A DNA stretch of 64,000 bases. Source: a phage. Under the pieces are notes generated by a model. That model saw nothing but the letters and a program-made list of their open reading frames with translations, did no database searches and was not told the origin of the DNA. Shown piece by piece: positions 3,482 through 64,000 of this stretch. The DNA lies in assembly GCA_012813795.1 (NCBI GenBank), contig GCA_012813795.1_4087.1; one strand, 5' to 3'. The first letter of the stretch is position 1; the number at the start of each line of letters is the position of its first letter. The translations under genes and the position numbers were made by a program.

Positions 3482-4294
3482 TTAAATTACATAGGGTTTA
3501 TAGTAATGAATCTCATTTGCTATTGCAGTGAAAACTTTCTTATTAAATCTTTCACCATAATCACGAAGTGATTCACCTTCTACGCTTTCAATAAAGTAAT
3601 TATATACTGGTAGTCGTGCACTGTCAATACCTATAAACGATTTCATGTAAATTTGTACTAAACGATTCATACCTGAATTTAAACATTCAACATCAAAGTG
3701 CTTGATACCTTTGTCTAAGTGCTTGAATGCATTGATGATACCACGCTTGAAATCACGCTCCATAGTACTGAATAGATTCTCAGGAAACACTGTAATCGGA
3801 GACATGGATTTAAGAATGTATGTATCTTTTGCATTCTTGATGTACTCAATGAAGCAGTAGTTTACATTAGGCTCAATTGAACGGTCTGCATTATGATACC
3901 AGTACTTAAACTCGCTGTACTCTGCGAACTTATGCTGGCGTAAGGCATTACAATCCTCACACAGTGCAGTCATGTTCTCTTTATCATTACCACCCTGAAG
4001 ACAGTCAAGTACATTATGGTCTAACGTCATGCGTACAAGGCGTTTCCCTTTAAGTACATAAGGTCTGAATTTATAACGGTCTTTAGTACTGTGCTTATGT
4101 AAAGTGAATACTACATTGGATTCACCACAACAATCACATTTAAAGCCGTCACGAGACATTACATGAATGAGTTTGCGAGTATTAGGTCCAAACTCAGATT
4201 TAGTAATATTATCCACAATTTCTGATGGTTGGTAATATTTTGAATTCAGTCGAATCAATTCATCGATAGTACTCATTTTAGATTTCCTCTTCAC
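3482..4294 (-). CDS. HNH-family endonuclease (putative homing endonuclease)
   Basis: CxxC ... DHNVLDCLQGGNDKENMTALCEDCN resembles the HNH zinc-binding core. Confidence 0.6.
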   Translation of the reverse strand: MKRKSKMSTIDELIRLNSKYYQPSEIVDNITKSEFGPNTRKLIHVMSRDGFKCDCCGESNVVFTLHKHSTKDRYKFRPYVLKGKRLVRMTLDHNVLDCLQGGNDKENMTALCEDCNALRQHKFAEYSEFKYWYHNADRSIEPNVNYCFIEYIKNAKDTYILKSMSPITVFPENLFSTMERDFKRGIINAFKHLDKGIKHFDVECLNSGMNRLVQIYMKSFIGIDSARLPVYNYFIESVEGESLRDYGERFNKKVFTAIANEIHYYKPYVI

Positions 4295-5359: not shown

Positions 5360-6322
5360 TTAGAAATCTTCGTATTCGTACCCTTTTTCAAGTACTATTT
5401 TTTTAAGCTTTTGAATAGCTTCACTATATTTTCGGTGCACAGATGAACGGGACTTAACAATGTTTCCTTTATCATCAACATATCCATTATCAGAAATTTC
5501 ACGAAGGGTTTCTGCTTTGTAATCCCCAAGACCATGAACACGCATGATAATTTCTCGTTCTTTAGTACTCAATTCGTCAATGATTTCTGTGATTGCATAA
5601 CGTAATGGATTACAAATGCTATCAACATTAAGGTTATAATCACGAGCAGATGAACTCAGAATATCCCCAAGGGTTCCGTCTGAATCTGAACCCAGTTGTG
5701 CATCAAGAGTCGTATATGCATTCTGGTATAACAAACAGTTCTTAACGTGCTGAAGCTCGATACCAGTACTCTCAGAGATTAATTCTGGTGTTGGTCGCTT
5801 ACCGTGTTCACGTTGATATGATTCATTAAATCGACGTACTTGGATGTTATGAACGCTCATATAACGTGGTAAGTACACCATGTAATTTGCATCTGAACTT
5901 TCATTATACATAGTCATATAAACGGACGTTGTTGCATATGTAATGAATTTGACATTCTTACTAAGATCAAAGGTTTTAAGTGCTCGCATAAAACCTTCTA
6001 CGCCATATGCAATTTTATCTTCAAACGGAATATAACATGTACACTTTGAAGCAACGTCAACAATCATACCATAGTTGTAACGAAGTAATAGGTCAGTATT
6101 CTTTTTTACATTAATCCCAGCACGAATCTCTTCTATGATAGATTCATTAGTTACACCTGCTGGACGTTTAATACTGATATTACTTTTACTACGAACTTTA
6201 TGTGGAATATCATCTTCAATAACTTCTGATGGTTCAATTGCTTCCAATGGATTGACTTCTTCATTCGCAAAACATTCATCCAGTACTTCTTCGGAAATTG
6301 CGTTTAAGTCTAGTTTCTTCAC
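5360..6322 (-). CDS. sigma-70 family RNA polymerase sigma factor
   Basis: 320 aa; region-2-like segment and C-terminal region-4 HTH (LSTKEREIIMRVHGLGDYKAETLREISD...RSSVHRKYSEAIQKL). Confidence 0.7.
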   Translation of the reverse strand: MKKLDLNAISEEVLDECFANEEVNPLEAIEPSEVIEDDIPHKVRSKSNISIKRPAGVTNESIIEEIRAGINVKKNTDLLLRYNYGMIVDVASKCTCYIPFEDKIAYGVEGFMRALKTFDLSKNVKFITYATTSVYMTMYNESSDANYMVYLPRYMSVHNIQVRRFNESYQREHGKRPTPELISESTGIELQHVKNCLLYQNAYTTLDAQLGSDSDGTLGDILSSSARDYNLNVDSICNPLRYAITEIIDELSTKEREIIMRVHGLGDYKAETLREISDNGYVDDKGNIVKSRSSVHRKYSEAIQKLKKIVLEKGYEYEDF

Positions 6323-6343
6323 TTACTTCTCCTAATGAAAAAA

Positions 6344-6841
6344 TCAAAATTGGTATACATTAATATTGTCGTCAGTATATTCATCGTGGTTTTTTACCTC
6401 TTTGAAAGTACTGAATATTTTTTGAAGTAGTGTGTCTTGGTTCTCATGCACAGCAGCATCAACCATGTACTCTCCACCACTTCCCATGAAGAATACATAT
6501 TCCTCATGCATGAACTCAAGGTACTTAAAAAACTTCCCGTTCTTTGTTCCTAAGTGAATACAATAATCTTTGGACAACAAGACACAATGGCAGTTCTCTT
6601 TTCTACTGGGCAGTACTATATCACCATATATCAAATACATCAAGACTTTATTGATTTCATTCACTGAACCTGCTGCACTAAACAGACGATCATGAATGTA
6701 TAATGATTTTTGAGTAACTACACCATATTGTTTTTTTGGTTTTAACGGGAATAATCCGAGAAAGTACCTCTCTGTAGAGGTTGTTACTCTTGAATCAGTG
6801 AGCAATAATCCAACACGCTTGTCAACATATACTGTAGTCAT
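6344..6841 (-). CDS. possible HslV/proteasome-beta-like Ntn peptidase
   Basis: 165 aa; N-terminal MTTVYV (Thr after Met) and GSGGEY motif about 120 aa in, similar in spacing to HslV TTIVSV ... GSGGPYA. Confidence 0.4.
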   Translation of the reverse strand: MTTVYVDKRVGLLLTDSRVTTSTERYFLGLFPLKPKKQYGVVTQKSLYIHDRLFSAAGSVNEINKVLMYLIYGDIVLPSRKENCHCVLLSKDYCIHLGTKNGKFFKYLEFMHEEYVFFMGSGGEYMVDAAVHENQDTLLQKIFSTFKEVKNHDEYTDDNINVYQF

Positions 6842-6842
6842 T

Positions 6843-7268
6843 CTACACCTTATCTAAGAATGCGGAATATATATCAATTTCTCTTCCTTTCAATACCTTA
6901 TCAAATGGGAAGGGATCTTTACTTCCAGTTAATATACCAAGTTTTGTGAAAAAATACAAGGCAATGAATTCAGTTATTTTGATGTTTTTCTTACTCTTAA
7001 CCAATTCTGCATAAGCAGAATTATAATCAAATTTTGTAGATGAACCATCAAATCCAAAATAGTGAATGTTGTAATTTTTTGAAAAGTTACTAACTGTCAT
7101 TCTTTCACATATCAAATCAATGGCTACTTTGGACCTACAATGCTTATTGAGTAAATCATAATTACAATTATTCAATGCCTCGTATATATCAAAAGACTCT
7201 TGAGCCAGTGTATGTACTTTAGGCTTAATTAGTTTACTTAGTAAGTACCTTATCTTTTTCAGAATCAT
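6843..7268 (-). CDS. hypothetical protein
   Basis: 141-aa ORF. Confidence 0.5.
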   Translation of the reverse strand: MILKKIRYLLSKLIKPKVHTLAQESFDIYEALNNCNYDLLNKHCRSKVAIDLICERMTVSNFSKNYNIHYFGFDGSSTKFDYNSAYAELVKSKKNIKITEFIALYFFTKLGILTGSKDPFPFDKVLKGREIDIYSAFLDKV

Positions 7269-20437: not shown

Positions 20438-22078
<1,641 letters not shown>

Positions 22079-32272: not shown

Positions 32273-34171
32273 TTAAAAGAATATATCACGTAGTAAATGT
32301 TCTATAACAGGTGCTGTCCAGCCATTACCAAGCATTTTGTACGCTTGTGTTGAACTACTAACTTTGAAGTAGTTTACATCAATTCCTTGCAACATGCAAC
32401 ACTCTTGTACTGTTAAATGACGATAGTCCACATTTCGTTTACCCTTCTCAATCAGGAAGTTCCTGTTGATATCAGGGTCTTTGAAAACGATTTGTCTTCT
32501 TGACTTATTGAAGTACTGATTCGGATCTCCACCCTTGAAGTAGTTTGCGTCAATGCAATATGATTTATCACGATCAGTATACCAATTACCAGTTAGTATA
32601 TCTTGTAATTTTGGTGCTAAAATAAGAGGTTTTGGAATAAACAACTTATCCGAGCTATACCAGTAGTAACGTTGGCGATAATGTGCTGTATAATTTTGTG
32701 AATTTATCAAAATTGGTGTCATTTCCAACACGCCATTGATATAATCCTTGAAATCTTCCTTCATCTTAACATTCTCAAAAAGAACTTTCAAGTTAGGATT
32801 GAGACTTTTTATGTGCTGGTAAATATCAACCATTGTATGGAATAACATACCACGAGGATCATTCACACCGCCTTGTTTCCCAGCAACTGACCACGCTTGG
32901 CAGTTATGAACTACAATATTGTTCGCCGTATATGTGTTATCTACTGCAACTTCAATATTGTAAACGGTTTTCCATTCTCCGGTTGTGGTGTTCGATTTAA
33001 CACCTTTTACCCATGAATATGACCCATCATCATAGAATGCTTCATCTTTTCGGTGCTTTTCTTTTTTGTATGTTAATACGTAATACGGCTTCTGATTAAC
33101 AACACGTTCTTCTATAACTTTTGTTTCAGACGGTTTAAAGTATGTTATGTTAGAATGACGACCATACACATTCATAATTAGTTGTTGTATACCAAGAATA
33201 ACATTCTTTGATGTTGATGTAAATTTTAAACAATCATCTTTCTTGTCATGGTGACCATCTGCGTCAAAATAACCATCAATGAATGCTTTCTGATTAGCGA
33301 TACTTTCAGTGAAAAGTGTGGGGTGTACTTGTTTATTTGAAGCACCCTTACCCATTTGTTCACAAAATTCAACTAGTTCTTTTGAACAAATATAGAATTT
33401 ATAAGATGTTCTTTCTTTAACAAAATTATATTTCATATTCATACCATCAAAACATGAAACCAATTCATCAAATTCATCATGAGCACAGCAAATAAAAACA
33501 CGATATTGATAACTATTTTTTCTATTTTGTCGTTTTACTTTGTAAGTCCATCCATCACCCATAAATCTACCCATGAAATACCAAAAGCTTTCACTCTTGT
33601 TATGTTGAAAATTCACATTACAACGAACATTACATATAGCATGTTCTTCTGTGAGTTCATGTGCATCGATCCATGTAGGTTCTGTATATTCACGAACATA
33701 TTGTCGTTTTTCATTATCCCACTTCTTGCTCATTTTTCTCGCATAAAATGGATGATTATCAGTGCATTCAATTGGTATATGTCCCTGACCTGTGATGATT
33801 CTTGTTGGTGCAATCTTGCTACCAATACTCAATACTTTTTGGTATTGTCCAGTGTGTGTAAGAACCATATCACCAATTTTTATATCTTTTATATCTTTAT
33901 GACCTTCATTTGTCATGATCATGGTTCCTGCTGGGAAGCAAGGAAAACCACCCATCAGAAGATCTATCTTGTCCCATTCGATATCCCATTCTTTCCATCT
34001 AGTTACATCACCCAATTGGATGATATCAGGAAAGTTAGCCTGGGATTCAGCTATAGCAAATTTATCAATTTCAGATGAGTAGTACTTTTCAACTGGTATT
34101 CCTGCACTTTGCAAGGCCATATACCCAACACTCATCCCATTGAATAGTGATAGTACACGTATCGGTTCCAT
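32273..34171 (-). CDS. DNA (cytosine-5)-methyltransferase interrupted by an in-frame intein
   Basis: Motif I LFNGMSVG, then GGFP | intein | CQAWSVAG restores the catalytic PCQ motif; ENV motif follows. Confidence 0.85.
   Translation of the reverse strand: MEPIRVLSLFNGMSVGYMALQSAGIPVEKYYSSEIDKFAIAESQANFPDIIQLGDVTRWKEWDIEWDKIDLLMGGFPCFPAGTMIMTNEGHKDIKDIKIGDMVLTHTGQYQKVLSIGSKIAPTRIITGQGHIPIECTDNHPFYARKMSKKWDNEKRQYVREYTEPTWIDAHELTEEHAICNVRCNVNFQHNKSESFWYFMGRFMGDGWTYKVKRQNRKNSYQYRVFICCAHDEFDELVSCFDGMNMKYNFVKERTSYKFYICSKELVEFCEQMGKGASNKQVHPTLFTESIANQKAFIDGYFDADGHHDKKDDCLKFTSTSKNVILGIQQLIMNVYGRHSNITYFKPSETKVIEERVVNQKPYYVLTYKKEKHRKDEAFYDDGSYSWVKGVKSNTTTGEWKTVYNIEVAVDNTYTANNIVVHNCQAWSVAGKQGGVNDPRGMLFHTMVDIYQHIKSLNPNLKVLFENVKMKEDFKDYINGVLEMTPILINSQNYTAHYRQRYYWYSSDKLFIPKPLILAPKLQDILTGNWYTDRDKSYCIDANYFKGGDPNQYFNKSRRQIVFKDPDINRNFLIEKGKRNVDYRHLTVQECCMLQGIDVNYFKVSSSTQAYKMLGNGWTAPVIEHLLRDIFF
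32903..33940 (-). mobile_element. intein with LAGLIDADG homing-endonuclease domain (residues 78-423 of the methyltransferase ORF)
   Basis: Starts with Cys (CFPAGTMIM), TDNHPF block, two LAGLIDADG-like motifs (FMGRFMGDGW, AFIDGYFDADGH), ends VVHN then extein Cys. Confidence 0.8.
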
Positions 34172-34370
34172 CTATAATCCTTTATAAAATAAAATACTGG
34201 ACGAATATTCGCCCAGTATTGTCCTTTTTAATACTATTTAAAACTTATGTGGATTTCTCTTTTTAAGACCATCCAGTACATCAGTAGGTAGAATTTCACG
34301 GAATGACCCCACTGGGATAAGGATCATTACATATTTCAATTGGAGTTTCCTCGTTGTATAAGATTGATTA

Positions 34371-34457: not shown

Positions 34458-34748
34458 TTAGAAATCGTCAATACTTTTTTCTTGACACCATCGGGCAGTA
34501 CAGATGATTGCCGATGCAAGGATTGAAGCACTAGCACGACCACCGCCTAATATGTACTGACTGACCACACCAATCATATTGAACACTTTATCACTCTCGG
34601 ACAGTTGTTCAAAATCCTTTTTCCAAAATTCATATTCTTCGTCTGAAACTTCAAATTCACTACCCATATCATTTAAAATCTTTTTTAGTACTGCACTATG
34701 TTCACTCATCTTTATCACCATAACGTTCGTCGTAGTAATCATCATCAC
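34458..34748 (-). CDS. hypothetical protein
   Basis: 96-aa ORF. Confidence 0.45.
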   Translation of the reverse strand: MMMITTTNVMVIKMSEHSAVLKKILNDMGSEFEVSDEEYEFWKKDFEQLSESDKVFNMIGVVSQYILGGGRASASILASAIICTARWCQEKSIDDF

Positions 34749-34785
34749 GGTCTAATGGTTCTTTTGGTTTTTCGCTCATATTTCC

Positions 34786-35046
34786 TCACATGGTAAACGT
34801 GTTATCACCATCCATGTCTTCATCAGTTGCTTCTGCTAAGGTCTTGATAGTTAATAATCCACGCTTCACATACAACATGAAAACCTTTTCATAATTACCA
34901 AACATGATTTCCGGTGACATGTAATTTTCTGTTACAATGACAATTGGTCGCCCCTGTGTCAGCATACGAAACATAGTGCGATATTTGTCAAATGTACGGA
35001 ATTCATCCATGTTCATCATGTGGCGTTTACGAACTACTGTAGTCAC
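34786..35046 (-). CDS. hypothetical protein
   Basis: 86-aa ORF. Confidence 0.45.
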   Translation of the reverse strand: MTTVVRKRHMMNMDEFRTFDKYRTMFRMLTQGRPIVIVTENYMSPEIMFGNYEKVFMLYVKRGLLTIKTLAEATDEDMDGDNTFTM

Positions 35047-35050
35047 TGTG

Positions 35051-35473
35051 TTACCCTTTCAATTGTTTCTCGATATGGAATGTATTGTATATCTTGTTGT
35101 ACACAGTGTCAATAATTTTCTTAACGTCTGCTAACTCTTCGACAGTTGTGCACACATCACTGATAGTACTTAACTGAAACAACTCTTCTTCAGTACTGTA
35201 CAGTGTTATATCAAATTTGTTGCGAAGTTCATCTTCGATAACGTATTGATTTGTGACAGTATATGATGCAATTTCAACATCCAACAACTTATCACCTTCA
35301 AAAACATTATAAATGAACACAAATGTTAGTTCTTCACTCTCATCATCACTGTAGCTTATATATACATTGTAATTTTCACCATGAAAATCAAGATTGTGCT
35401 CAAACCTATTATCAGGTACTAGTGAATCTATAGGCATTCCCTTTAACAAATCAAAACAATCTCTTGGGTTCAT
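35051..35473 (-). CDS. EE-x-FFQ motif family protein
   Basis: C-terminal STEEELFQLSTISD. Confidence 0.55.
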   Translation of the reverse strand: MNPRDCFDLLKGMPIDSLVPDNRFEHNLDFHGENYNVYISYSDDESEELTFVFIYNVFEGDKLLDVEIASYTVTNQYVIEDELRNKFDITLYSTEEELFQLSTISDVCTTVEELADVKKIIDTVYNKIYNTFHIEKQLKG

Positions 35474-35910
35474 TTTACATCCATTTGTCGCTGTTCATCA
35501 ATAAAAAAGATGTTAAAGATAGCTGAACGCATTTTTGTTAGCGTACTCATGAGATATTTTAAATCCTTGAAATCAATATTAAATGTTTGAACCAGTGATT
35601 CCTGGAAATACCCCTCTTCAGTAGTGCATTCACTTACATTTTGTACCTGATATATTTTGATAATATTATCATCACGAAGCATAATTTCTAAGTTATTGTT
35701 ATTAACATTGTGCACGATATACATCTGATCACCATATACCAGATTATTAACTGATAATGATAATACATTATTTTCAATAATAATCTTAAAGCAATTCTGA
35801 CCTACGTATGTGGTATTTTTAATTTGTTCTTCAGGATCAGTCAAACCATCGTTGATAAATTTAATTTTATTAAAAGTACTGATATATTTTTTAACTAATT
35901 TAATGTTCAT
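35470..35910 (-). CDS. EE-x-FFQ motif family protein
   Basis: C-terminal TTEEGYFQESLVQTF. Confidence 0.55.
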   Translation of the reverse strand: MNIKLVKKYISTFNKIKFINDGLTDPEEQIKNTTYVGQNCFKIIIENNVLSLSVNNLVYGDQMYIVHNVNNNNLEIMLRDDNIIKIYQVQNVSECTTEEGYFQESLVQTFNIDFKDLKYLMSTLTKMRSAIFNIFFIDEQRQMDVK

Positions 35911-36287
35911 TGCTTTACCTTAGATAGAGCATAATTCATTATTGACTTGATTTTTTGTAAATTGTCATATGACATTACATGTTTTTCAATTAATGATAGT
36001 TGAAATAATTCTTCTTCAGTTGAATTCAAGTAAACTTCTGAACCATCATAATTTTCAAAATCATAAAGGTATGAAAGACGGTCATCTATATACCAACCAA
36101 TCCATTCAATGGTGTTTCTTTCTTTGAAAACACAAGTATATGGATTATCTCTTGAATCTAAGGTTATGGTTAAACGTAAACATGAATTTGATTGTTGTAC
36201 ACTCTGTCTCCCATAATATACAGTAACCTCATCGGTTTCAATTGATTTATACAAAGCATCAATTTTTCTATCCAATTCATCTACCAT
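35907..36287 (-). CDS. EE-x-FFQ motif family protein
   Basis: C-terminal STEEELFQLSLIEKH. Confidence 0.55.
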   Translation of the reverse strand: MVDELDRKIDALYKSIETDEVTVYYGRQSVQQSNSCLRLTITLDSRDNPYTCVFKERNTIEWIGWYIDDRLSYLYDFENYDGSEVYLNSTEEELFQLSLIEKHVMSYDNLQKIKSIMNYALSKVKQ

Positions 36288-36691
36288 AATCTTACCCTTT
36301 TCAATGCTTTAACTTCGTCAGTGCACGGGAACACAACGAATCCAGTTAATGTTAGACCATCAAAATGGTTGAATCCATAATCATGAATCTTAGTTGCAGT
36401 GAATCCTTCAGCTTTCACTTTATCGAATAGATTAAGCATCTGTTCTTCAGATTTAGCCTTTAAGATAATCTTGCGGCGACCGTCCTGTACCCAAGTACTG
36501 AAATCGTTCAGGATCTTTTCATCTTCATCTCTTGGGTTCTCACCAACAGCATTACAACCACGAATTGATGTACCAGCAACTGTAACCGTGGACCAGATAG
36601 AATCAACCGCATGACCCGCCTGAGCAGCAAGCTTCCCAACTGGCATATCTAAGTCTTCACGAATGATTATGTAACATTTACTTACTGTCAT
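36281..36691 (-). CDS. pth2: peptidyl-tRNA hydrolase, PTH2 family
   Basis: IIREDLDMPVGKLAAQAGHAV and KIILKAKSEEQMLNLFDKVKAEGF match remembered PTH2 core motifs. Confidence 0.75.
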   Translation of the reverse strand: MTVSKCYIIIREDLDMPVGKLAAQAGHAVDSIWSTVTVAGTSIRGCNAVGENPRDEDEKILNDFSTWVQDGRRKIILKAKSEEQMLNLFDKVKAEGFTATKIHDYGFNHFDGLTLTGFVVFPCTDEVKALKRVRLW

Positions 36692-37103
36692 CTACAATCT
36701 CCTTTTCATATTGCTCAAGTATCGAATAGATCTTATTGGAAATGTCCAATGTTTTAACATAATCACAGTACCTGATACACCCAAAATCATACAAAGTACT
36801 AACCATAAAGAATTCTTCTTCAGAGTACTTCTTTTCATTGAATGTAATGGTATTTGTAATTTTTCCAGATTCTGAATATTTTACATAGATAATACTACCA
36901 TTACTTATGTAATCTAATGTCTCTGAATACTTTTCAATACTAGAACTATGTCTAAATTGAATTCCTACAGATTTATCATACCAAAGAGATTTATTTCCGT
37001 CAGTAAGTATAGCATAATCAATCTTACGTTTATCATTGACACACATACCACAATCGGTAATTTTTAGTTTAGTGATATCAATATTCAACAGATCACTTAT
37101 CAT
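36678..37103 (-). CDS. EE-x-FFQ motif family protein
   Basis: C-terminal SEEEFFMVSTLYDFG. Confidence 0.5.
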   Translation of the reverse strand: MISDLLNIDITKLKITDCGMCVNDKRKIDYAILTDGNKSLWYDKSVGIQFRHSSSIEKYSETLDYISNGSIIYVKYSESGKITNTITFNEKKYSEEEFFMVSTLYDFGCIRYCDYVKTLDISNKIYSILEQYEKEIVDDSK

Positions 37104-37527
37104 CCAATTCTCCGAATTTGGTTAGAGCAAACACTTTTGCCTCATCATGCAGTTTGTGAATTAGTATGATATTATCATATGTTAAATCTAGTACATTGTC
37201 AACAAGTGAACGTTGAAATAGTATCTCTTCAGATGTGATTTCATGGATGTTTTCTATCTTAATTTCATTGAATGTATCAGTTTCATTTTCTCGCGTACTC
37301 ATGATCAACGTACCACTCGTTGAAATGTATGATATCTTGGTATCCACACCATCAATGGTTGCGTACAGGCGAATTATTTCATATGAATCAGTTAATCTTA
37401 CATTAACCTTAATTTCATCCTCTGTACAAAACCACACACTTTTAGCAAAGAAATTGACACGTACTTTCATATCTTTAAGTTTATTATTTTGGAAATATTT
37501 TAGTACTTTTTTGAATGATATAATCAT
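37093..37527 (-). CDS. EE-x-FFQ motif family protein
   Basis: C-terminal TSEEILFQRSLVDNVLDLTYDNI. Confidence 0.55.
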   Translation of the reverse strand: MIISFKKVLKYFQNNKLKDMKVRVNFFAKSVWFCTEDEIKVNVRLTDSYEIIRLYATIDGVDTKISYISTSGTLIMSTRENETDTFNEIKIENIHEITSEEILFQRSLVDNVLDLTYDNIILIHKLHDEAKVFALTKFGELDDK

Positions 37528-37544
37528 ATGTATCTCCTTTAGTA

Positions 37545-37940
37545 CTATATCGCATAGTACTTAAATAATGTTTTTAGATCATCAATAGTGAATGGTAAAT
37601 CCTCCAAAAGCAACTGTTGAAAGTAATGCTCTTCGTCAAGATACTTATGTATATTGATGAATGATTTTCTATGATAATCCGCTTTCCATGTAGGTCTTGT
37701 ACCCTTAGTATATTCAGTGAATACAATTTTGTCCATACCATAATCATACACGAATTCATTCTTTTCTGCAACCCCCTGATACTTTAGTTTTACCGGTTCT
37801 TTGCTGATAGAAAATTTATGCTCAGATGATTCATAATAGAATGATGATTGCTGATATTTTGATAAATCAATCTTTGAAAAATCATTTAGATAATAAGAAA
37901 GTTTAATTGTGACGATGCTGCCTATTCGACGACCCAACAT
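37545..37940 (-). CDS. EE-x-FFQ motif family protein
   Basis: C-terminal DEEHYFQQLLLEDLPFTIDDL. Confidence 0.55.
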   Translation of the reverse strand: MLGRRIGSIVTIKLSYYLNDFSKIDLSKYQQSSFYYESSEHKFSISKEPVKLKYQGVAEKNEFVYDYGMDKIVFTEYTKGTRPTWKADYHRKSFINIHKYLDEEHYFQQLLLEDLPFTIDDLKTLFKYYAI

Positions 37941-38089
37941 ACTTTTATCCTAATATAAAAAATGCCCCTGGGAGGGGCAGTACGAAAAGATATAAAATGT
38001 ACAATAAGAAATGGAAAATATAATAAATTAATTTTATTATAGAAGGGAGGAAAAATAACATAATAATATGTTAGCCATTACTGGCATAA

Positions 38090-45439: not shown

Positions 45440-46567
45440 TTACTTGTTAGCTTTGTCAGCAATTTCGCGAAGAGTTTCTTCAAGTTCGTAGGACAACTGT
45501 GCAATTTCATGTTTAGCACGTTCACGTTCTTCCTTACCTTTCTTCTCTTCAATCAGTACTGCTTCGATGCTATCAATCATTGTTTTGTGTACGTTACGCA
45601 ATGTTTTAATATCCACAATACCACGGTTATTAGCTTTAGCAGCATCTAACATATTAGTTGCTACCATTTTGGAGTTCACTTCAAGTAAACGGTTAGTTTC
45701 ATTATCAATCAAATTACCCAACTCGTTATCTTTGCGTTGGCGTTCAGAAATCAATTGTTCTGCTAGTTGTGATTTCCATGCAGGGATGACAACAGATTTC
45801 AGATCTTCAAATTTAGATACAGTGTTTAGATTCACTTTCTTCATACTCATCAGACGAGGGCCACTAAGCTCACACATCATGATAAGACGGCGAATCTTAT
45901 CTTCCTGTTTAGACAATGCTTCACAAATCATCTTCTGCTCTTGGATTGCGAAAGAATCCACATCAGGGTTCGCTTGCATTTCTTCCAGTTTAGCATCTTG
46001 AGTTTTTGTGACTTGTTCCAATTCAACCAGCGTATCGCGTAATTCAAATAGATAGGCTTTATTCTCATTGTAAGCAGTATCCAACCACTCACATTCACTA
46101 TGTTGGCGATTGATACCAACCTGGAGTGTGTTCATGATTTCATCAATCTGCTCTTTACTATTCTTGTACTGATCACCAACTTTCTGTTTTGCATTGACAA
46201 AGAGTTTTTTGACCCAACCTACAATTGATTTATCATCTTGTAGACTGTCAATATCAACAGCACGGGTTAGGGATAAAATTGTGGTAATTGATTTACCAAA
46301 TTCAGTATTGTCATCAGTGACGTTCACTTTTGACATGATTTCATCAGCCAAACGTCCTACACCTGCACCAGCAGTTGTTCCAATGGTGTTAATGTTCTGA
46401 ACAGTTAAAGACATAGTGTTACCTTTTGTATCTTTCAGTACAGGTAACGTTTTAGCCTGTTGGTCGAAAATATCACTCGCATCAAAAGTATTACCTTTGG
46501 TTTTGGTTGTAGTACGCTTAGTAGTTTTGGTAGTTGCTTTTTTTGGGTTGATTTCTTTCTCGGACAT
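45440..46567 (-). CDS. hypothetical coiled-coil protein
   Basis: 375-aa ORF; Thr/Lys-rich N-terminus. Confidence 0.5.
   Translation of the reverse strand: MSEKEINPKKATTKTTKRTTTKTKGNTFDASDIFDQQAKTLPVLKDTKGNTMSLTVQNINTIGTTAGAGVGRLADEIMSKVNVTDDNTEFGKSITTILSLTRAVDIDSLQDDKSIVGWVKKLFVNAKQKVGDQYKNSKEQIDEIMNTLQVGINRQHSECEWLDTAYNENKAYLFELRDTLVELEQVTKTQDAKLEEMQANPDVDSFAIQEQKMICEALSKQEDKIRRLIMMCELSGPRLMSMKKVNLNTVSKFEDLKSVVIPAWKSQLAEQLISERQRKDNELGNLIDNETNRLLEVNSKMVATNMLDAAKANNRGIVDIKTLRNVHKTMIDSIEAVLIEEKKGKEERERAKHEIAQLSYELEETLREIADKANK

Positions 46568-61661: not shown

Positions 61662-64000
<2,339 letters not shown>

Follow-up and report, generated by a model that had tools for sequence, protein, structure and literature searches.

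A PTH2-family gene shared by RaK2-like jumbo phages and its probable role as an accessory peptidyl-tRNA hydrolase

Introduction

Why might a bacteriophage whose host uses Pth1 carry a peptidyl-tRNA hydrolase of the second type, PTH2? The question is raised by a short gene, pth2, in a 64,000-nucleotide stretch of phage DNA that is referred to here, in its entirety, as the window. The original prediction for this locus took its product to be a PTH2-family hydrolase, considered such an enzyme unexpected in a bacteriophage, and suggested that it could recycle peptidyl-tRNA during infection or counter host responses that stall translation.

One part of this has to be abandoned at the outset. Taken together, GenBank annotation, papers on jumbo phages and matches in BFVD make it clear that the premise of an unexpected phage PTH2 was wrong. 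The ortholog A4_114 is already annotated in ON286972.1 and other orthologs have been in print since 2013. In that year the description of phage RaK2 singled out ORF188 as a type-2 Pth and noted the archaeal/eukaryotic distribution of such enzymes (PMC3622015). The papers on CBB (2017) and XacN1 (2018) then listed PTH2 among tRNA-related genes, and a 2021 review of jumbo phages proposed a role for PTH2 in releasing peptidyl-tRNA during ribosome rescue and speculated about an ancient origin (PMC7824862). Both of the suggested roles are plausible, and the same ideas already stand in this literature. No experimental work on a phage PTH2 turned up in searches of the literature. The discovery value of the locus is small, because the gene, its family and the presence of an archaeo-eukaryotic Pth in a bacterial phage are all in GenBank and in papers; pth2 is already known from annotation and published comparative genomics. 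What is added here are modest details: the accessory status of the gene, the apparent restriction of its subfamily to phages and a fixed Thr-to-Asn change.

The pth2 gene and its surroundings

The predicted reading frame was correct. The ORF and the motifs quoted for it match exactly in sequence and translation, with GKLAAQAGHA at residues 19-28 of the product and KIILKAKSEEQM...AEGF at residues 74-97 (positions of all features are given in Table 1). The Shine-Dalgarno sequence is located within the 3' end of the upstream gene. The coding sequence shares 14 nt with the gene before it and 7 nt with the gene after it, which makes pth2 part of a tightly packed co-directional cluster. A terminator-like hairpin with a T-run lies on each side of the cluster, although these come from a consensus-based scan in which the total count was not above that of shuffled sequences.

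Table 1. Positions of pth2 and other features of the window, with counterparts in related phages
Feature	Position	Strand	Remarks
pth2 coding sequence	36281..36691	-	ATG-to-stop ORF, 136 aa, coordinates include stop; PTH2 family; = RaK2_188, 121Q counterpart absent
Shine-Dalgarno sequence AAGGAG of pth2	36699..36704	-	7-nt spacer to the ATG; read from the sequence
K20 codon (GK motif)	36632..36634	-	= S. solfataricus K18 by alignment
D104-Y-G-F-N108 codons	36368..36382	-	PTH2 DxGxT loop
Codons of residues 31-64	36500..36601	-	lengthened alpha1-alpha2 helical hairpin
Nine-gene co-directional cluster including pth2	34458..37940	-	small genes, tightly packed/overlapping
Terminator-like hairpin and T-run, upstream of cluster	37963..37979	-	consensus scan; possible transcription-unit boundary
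Terminator-like hairpin and T-run, downstream of cluster	34193..34220	-	consensus scan; before the DNA methyltransferase gene
Genes of the six small flanking proteins, whole span	35051..37940	-	on both sides of pth2
Paralog ORF	35051-35473	-	
Paralog ORF	35470-35910	-	A4 35470 gene = RaK2_191, 121Q_87
Paralog ORF	35907-36287	-	A4 35907 gene = 121Q_86
Paralog ORF	36678-37103	-	A4 36678 gene = RaK2_187, 121Q_85
Paralog ORF	37093-37527	-	A4 37093 gene = RaK2_186, 121Q_84
Paralog ORF	37545-37940	-	
A4 38090 gene			= RaK2_185, 121Q_81
A4 34786 gene			= RaK2_192, 121Q_89
DNA-cytosine methyltransferase gene	32273..34171	-	632 aa here and in A4
tRNA-Ser, anticodon ACT	20972..21063	-	ARAGORN call; Rfam supports a tRNA at the site
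tRNA-Met(CAT)	20890..20964	-	encoded CCA
Two sigma-70 family RNA polymerase sigma factor genes	~3655..3933, 5919..6881	-	A4 322885-323163, 319937-320899
TelA-like protein gene	45440..46567		A4 annotation
Partial IF3, 'protease adapter protein' and KTSC-domain genes	~62819..64000	-	A4 annotation, A4 262644-263999

Six small proteins of 126-146 aa flank pth2 on both sides, and they have in common a C-terminal (S/T)EEE(L/F)FQxS motif and weak pairwise similarity. Judged by these features, their genes are a diverged tandem paralog array, which is also found in RaK2 and 121Q. No Pfam matches were obtained for the six proteins and each belongs to a different PHROG of unknown function.

What of the base composition? 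The GC content of pth2 is 0.409, compared with 0.27-0.33 for its immediate neighbors and 0.345 for the window, which could point to recent horizontal transfer. This was rejected: GC at third codon positions (GC3) is average (0.343 in pth2, window mean 0.345) and the gene keeps its slot across genera. The raised GC probably reflects amino-acid composition.

A few other features of the window deserve mention in their own right. In 121Q and RaK2 the DNA-cytosine methyltransferase has just 286 aa (861 nt) and 297 aa (894 nt), respectively, so the much longer A4 version may carry an extra domain or be a fusion. A GroES-like co-chaperone and a 3'-5' exoribonuclease are also encoded, according to the A4 annotation. 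There are five tRNA genes; one of them, a predicted tRNA-Ser(ACT), would have A as its wobble base, an unusual choice in bacteria and phages.

Family assignment and fold

The assignment to PTH2 has been borne out. On Pfam profile PF01981 (PTH2), whose gathering cutoff is 23 bits, the pth2 product scores 66.7 bits (E 2.6e-18) over profile positions 2-103 of 115. A phmmer search of PDB sequences matched seven PTH2 chains at E values from 3e-13 to 5e-5. These are the Pth2 enzymes of M. jannaschii, A. fulgidus, P. horikoshii, T. acidophilum and S. solfataricus, human Bit1/PTRH2, and a chain named peptidyl-tRNA hydrolase (24bt). The last is a recent deposit, a 127-aa PTH2-family chain that reaches E 1.5e-10 with a profile of the phage clade described below and is absent from the Foldseek matches.

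The predicted structure agrees. An AlphaFold2 monomer model built on an alignment of 120 homologs (pLDDT 97.5, pTM 0.89) has the PTH2 alpha/beta fold, a mixed beta-sheet with flanking helices. When it was compared with the PDB by Foldseek there were 14 matches at E<=1e-3, every one of them a PTH2 structure (E 2e-8 to 1e-4, target-normalised TM-score 0.72-0.86), and the next match had an E value of 0.37. With the profile match, the phmmer matches, the model and the Foldseek matches all in agreement, membership of the PTH2 homologous family is secure.

Family membership is one thing and equivalence to the archaeal enzyme is another. The cutoffs of the two NCBIfam models for the archaeal Pth2 equivalog, NF003314 and TIGR00283, were both missed (64.9 against a cutoff of 126 and 62.7 against 82). 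By NCBI criteria the pth2 product is a divergent subfamily and not an archaeal Pth2 equivalog. The viral family that it matches best, PHROG 1866 (phrog_1866, E 6.7e-30), is labeled 'unknown function'.

A subfamily of jumbo phages

Where else is this subfamily found? Escherichia phage A4 (ON286972.1), an Asteriusvirus of 355,528 bp whose host is E. coli LF82, shows 99.2% identity over the 5-kb stretch around pth2. Its A4_114 protein (USL83781.1), annotated 'peptidyl-tRNA hydrolase', has 99.3% amino-acid identity to the pth2 product, a single difference. A 100% identical protein is present in NCBI as 'aminoacyl-tRNA hydrolase [Escherichia coli]', encoded on a contig of 357,761 bp. Going by these identities, the window probably derives from the genome of an A4-like jumbo phage that was filed under E. 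coli or assembled along with it. An integrated or resident copy in E. coli was considered and rejected, as a search of complete RefSeq E. coli genomes gave no match to the region.

Further afield, tblastn found homologs in 40 phage records, nearly all of them jumbo phages of 310-460 kb that infect enterobacteria, Erwinia, Serratia, Yersinia and Xanthomonas. Many of these homologs are annotated as peptidyl-tRNA hydrolase. Orthologs occupy a syntenic slot in RaK2, GAP32, CBB and related phages of 345-380 kb. RaK2 ORF188 (AFA44461.1, 137 aa) is 60% identical to the pth2 product and lies in the same slot, and the orthologs of the GAP32/CBB group are 40-45% identical. Orthologs are also known from K64-1, Muenster, Serratia phage BF and the Erwinia pEa_SNUABM phages, in addition to GAP32 and CBB (CBB_392). 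In a rough neighbor-joining tree, the clade that contains the query is monophyletic and has 45 tips. Its motifs (DLxMPxGK, GRRKI, DYGFNxF and KRxRxW) are all present in the query, and A4, RaK2 and related orthologs share with it an Asn at position 108 (N108) and a C-terminus of the form KR(V/L)R(L/C)(W/Y).

Does the subfamily extend beyond phages? An exhaustive profile search of 1.84 billion representative proteins returned 2,448 PTH2 relatives at E<=1e-3, of which just three representatives reached E<=1e-29. The nearest relatives outside the clade are all metagenomic proteins. A scan for the clade motifs in 185,579 species-representative bacterial and archaeal genomes produced one distant relative (32% identity). 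The same scan of IMG/VR produced 12 loci, mostly on contigs of 345-378 kb. From the two motif scans, the RaK2-like subfamily looks restricted to jumbo phages. The family at large is not: bacteria also carry PTH2 proteins, one example being P0051, which is among these nearest relatives outside the clade and whose contig looks cellular, encoding NDK, a sigma-70 factor and a peptidase M3.

A side issue concerns the number of PTH2 genes per phage. BFVD contains a RaK2 protein (H6X423, 107 aa, 'peptidyl-tRNA hydrolase' in UniProt) that matches the model with 13% identity and differs in length from ORF188. Either a further protein with the PTH2 fold or an alternative gene model could account for it. 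The second paralog that this might suggest was rejected for the present locus. A profile scan of all six-frame ORFs in the window found one PTH2 homolog, pth2 itself, and RaK2 ORF188 is its true ortholog.

Active-site residues and the helical hairpin

Is the phage protein equipped to be an enzyme? In 262 PTH2 sequences aligned to one profile, the near-invariant positions are K20 (261/262), Q24 (260), H27 (262), K74 (260), D104 (258) and T116 (256), and the query retains every one of them. K18, D86 and T90 of S. solfataricus Pth2 are reportedly important for activity, and T90 is said to be a possible nucleophile. Aligning query residues 5-125 with residues 3-107 of the 1xty chain equates these three with K20, D104 and N108. 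Therefore, the Lys and the Asp are kept, whereas the Thr four residues past the Asp is replaced by Asn.

How much does this replacement matter? All solved PTH2 structures have Thr at position 108; of the 262 sequences, 202 have Thr there and 52 have Asn. The Asn is concentrated in the phage clade, where 44 of the 45 members have it, including the query. Outside the clade 201 of 217 sequences have Thr, with Asn in eight scattered lineages. One could argue that the clade has a changed function and that its members are inactive binders of tRNA or the ribosome, or act on a different ester substrate. The near fixation of N108 and the scores below the equivalog cutoffs would fit this, and so would the length of the segment discussed next. 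Against it, all of the other near-invariant residues are in place and the exchange itself seems to be tolerated. P0003, a close relative within the clade (66% identical to the query), has Thr, and Asn has appeared in the eight non-clade lineages, so Thr and Asn look interchangeable at this position. Their codons differ by a single base. It is more likely, judging from this pattern of substitution, that the residue at position 108 acts via hydrogen bonding rather than as an obligatory nucleophile. On balance, a changed function has a slim chance of being correct.

The second unusual aspect is the alpha1-alpha2 helical hairpin. In the query, H27 and W67 are separated by a segment of 39 aa compared with a family median of 25. 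The secondary structure of the model places the two helices at residues 18-48 and 55-69, with helix alpha1 predicted to be about 15 residues longer. The PTH2 dimer is reportedly formed through this helix. Could the segment be a unique insertion? That was rejected, and the argument for a changed function is weakened with it, since 39 aa is inside the 10th-90th percentile range of the family (16-39 aa). PTH2 itself is a homodimer (PMC11994314).

Synteny and accessory status

The order of genes is the same in A4 and RaK2: the TelA-like gene, then others up to phrog_15745, small genes, pth2, small genes, phrog_4868 and the DNA methyltransferase gene, with a tRNA cluster ~13-17 kb beyond the latter. 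In IMG/VR contigs of the GAP32, CBB and fHe-Yen9-04 types, phrog_15745 and phrog_4868 again lie upstream and downstream of pth2. All-against-all BLASTP of A4, RaK2 and 121Q allowed the neighbors to be mapped one to one (Table 1). Homologs at 40-60% identity in the same slot, between homologs of the A4 38090 and 34786 genes, argue for long purifying selection on pth2.

The exception is 121Q. No PTH2 signal was found at the slot in this phage, where genes 85 and 86 directly adjoin. Gene 84, which also encodes 136 aa, was considered as a diverged pth2 and rejected; its PTH2 E value is 0.33 and it is homologous to the A4 37093 gene. Around thirty other E. coli Asteriusvirus records gave no tblastn match to pth2, and they share just 12% of the 5-kb region. 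The simplest reading of these distributions is that the ancestor of the RaK2-like supergroup already had pth2 and that the 121Q lineage has since lost it. On this view pth2 would be an accessory gene, conserved and yet dispensable. Since 121Q-type Asteriusviruses are able to infect E. coli in its absence, any benefit it brings must be conditional.

Possible roles during infection

The reading we prefer, at a probability of about 0.6, is that pth2 encodes an active PTH2-type hydrolase that frees tRNA from dropped-off or N-blocked aminoacyl-tRNA and supplements host Pth1. We infer activity and a role in infection from the homology, fold and residue conservation described above. Peptidyl-tRNA and other N-blocked aminoacyl-tRNAs that have come off the ribosome would be hydrolysed at their ester bond, which would make the tRNAs of host and phage available again and add to the work of the unrelated Pth1. 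The gene would then be one part of a phage translation toolkit with IF3, the KTSC-domain protein and the phage's own tRNAs, and an accessory part rather than an essential one. The context fits, with five tRNA genes, a partial IF3 gene and a KTSC-domain gene in the window. The strong Shine-Dalgarno sequence and operon-like packing of pth2 also support an active hydrolase; the genome as a whole consists of hundreds of short overlapping ORFs. Counting against it are N108, the scores under both NCBIfam equivalog cutoffs and the absence of the gene from 121Q-type phages.

Would a PTH2 enzyme be of any use in a bacterium? Archaeal Pth2 enzymes reportedly complement E. coli pth mutants, which would mean that the fold works on bacterial peptidyl-tRNA. 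In addition, the growth of phage lambda depends on host Pth activity (the rap/bar minigene phenomenon). Together these suggest that such an activity is feasible in the host and relevant to phage growth.

What if the same chemistry serves a different purpose? Pth detoxifies acetylated aminoacyl-tRNA. In a counter-defence role, the enzyme would act on tRNAs that abortive-infection systems of the host have damaged, stripping off N-acetyl or peptidyl groups to allow recycling or repair. Candidate systems are GNAT toxins of the TacT, AtaT and ItaT kind, whose target for acetylation is aminoacyl-tRNA, and anticodon nucleases, whose action leaves ribosomes with cleaved peptidyl-tRNA. A tRNA-acetylating toxin and a detoxifying enzyme have been reported in M. 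tuberculosis. The 2021 review groups PTH2 with tRNA repair and proposes that it hydrolyses peptidyl linkages on cleaved tRNAs (PMC7824862), and RaK2 and CBB do also encode RNA ligase, PNK and CCA-adding enzymes. Furthermore, conflict genes typically show the kind of accessory, lineage-variable distribution seen here, with its loss in 121Q-type phages. However, the neighbors of pth2 are uncharacterised paralogs rather than known anti-defence genes, PADLOC gave no match for the pth2 product, and host Pth1 already has such an activity. Homology of the product to a defence system was likewise rejected on the PADLOC result. We consider a counter-defence role unlikely.

A more exotic idea is that the enzyme takes over initiation. 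S. solfataricus Pth2 is said to hydrolyse fMet-tRNAfMet in vitro, unlike E. coli Pth1, and in concert with the IF3 encoded in the same window such an activity could perhaps bias initiation. This is purely speculative. We know of no report that archaeal Pth2 is toxic when it complements E. coli. Furthermore, the phage tRNA-Met(CAT) has a paired 1:72 position and is without the initiator-type G-C run in the anticodon stem. By these features it is of the elongator Met or tRNA-Ile2 (lysidine) type and not an initiator, so the phage would bring no replacement initiator. An initiation take-over is thus highly improbable.

There is also a bolder version of these ideas, in which the clade is not a simple back-up for Pth1 at all. 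Its members would be specialised conflict enzymes that preferentially deblock tRNAs modified by host abortive-infection toxins (e.g., GNAT-made N-acetyl-aminoacyl-tRNA) or act on initiator tRNA. The basis for this is the fixed Asn and the extended acidic helical hairpin. If true, it would explain why pth2 is carried in some lineages and cleanly lost from others. We regard it as quite doubtful.

Returning to the preferred reading of a supplementary hydrolase, nature has provided a useful pair of E. coli-infecting phages: A4, with pth2, and the 121Q type, without it and otherwise syntenic. Comparing the two could show if additional peptidyl-tRNA hydrolase capacity is required by a phage, and in the face of which host defences. 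The proposed PTH2 mechanism could in turn be probed by simple mutation at the site of the fixed Thr-to-Asn change.

Comparison with known systems

PTH2-fold proteins are widespread among viruses, and BFVD matches include many other phages, giant viruses and fowlpox virus. Those of Agrobacterium phage Atu_ph07, Mycobacterium phage Myrna, Vibrio phage VH7D, Klosneuvirus, Pithovirus and fowlpox virus are annotated as peptidyl-tRNA hydrolase. They have 11-28% identity and belong to lineages separate from the RaK2-like clade.

Archaeal Pth2 (2ZV3 of M. jannaschii, 1XTY of S. solfataricus, 1WN2 of P. horikoshii and 3ERJ of A. fulgidus) and human PTRH2/Bit1 (1Q7S) have the same alpha/beta fold as the phage model. 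They also have in common with the phage protein the GK...AQ..HA motif, a conserved Trp and Lys, and a DxG loop, with the Lys and Asp that are candidates for catalysis. Identity, however, is only 22-28%, the Thr of DxGxT is Asn in the phage, the alpha1-alpha2 hairpin is ~20 residues longer and the C-terminus ends in KRVRLW rather than LKL(L). The setting differs too, as the phage protein finds itself in a host that uses Pth1.

E. coli Pth and the phage PTH2 presumably catalyze the same reaction on the same substrates, the hydrolysis of peptidyl-tRNA. However, the fold and active site are unrelated and the sizes differ (~190 aa for Pth1 and 136 aa for the phage protein; PMC11202043), which makes the host enzyme an analog of the phage protein and not a homolog.
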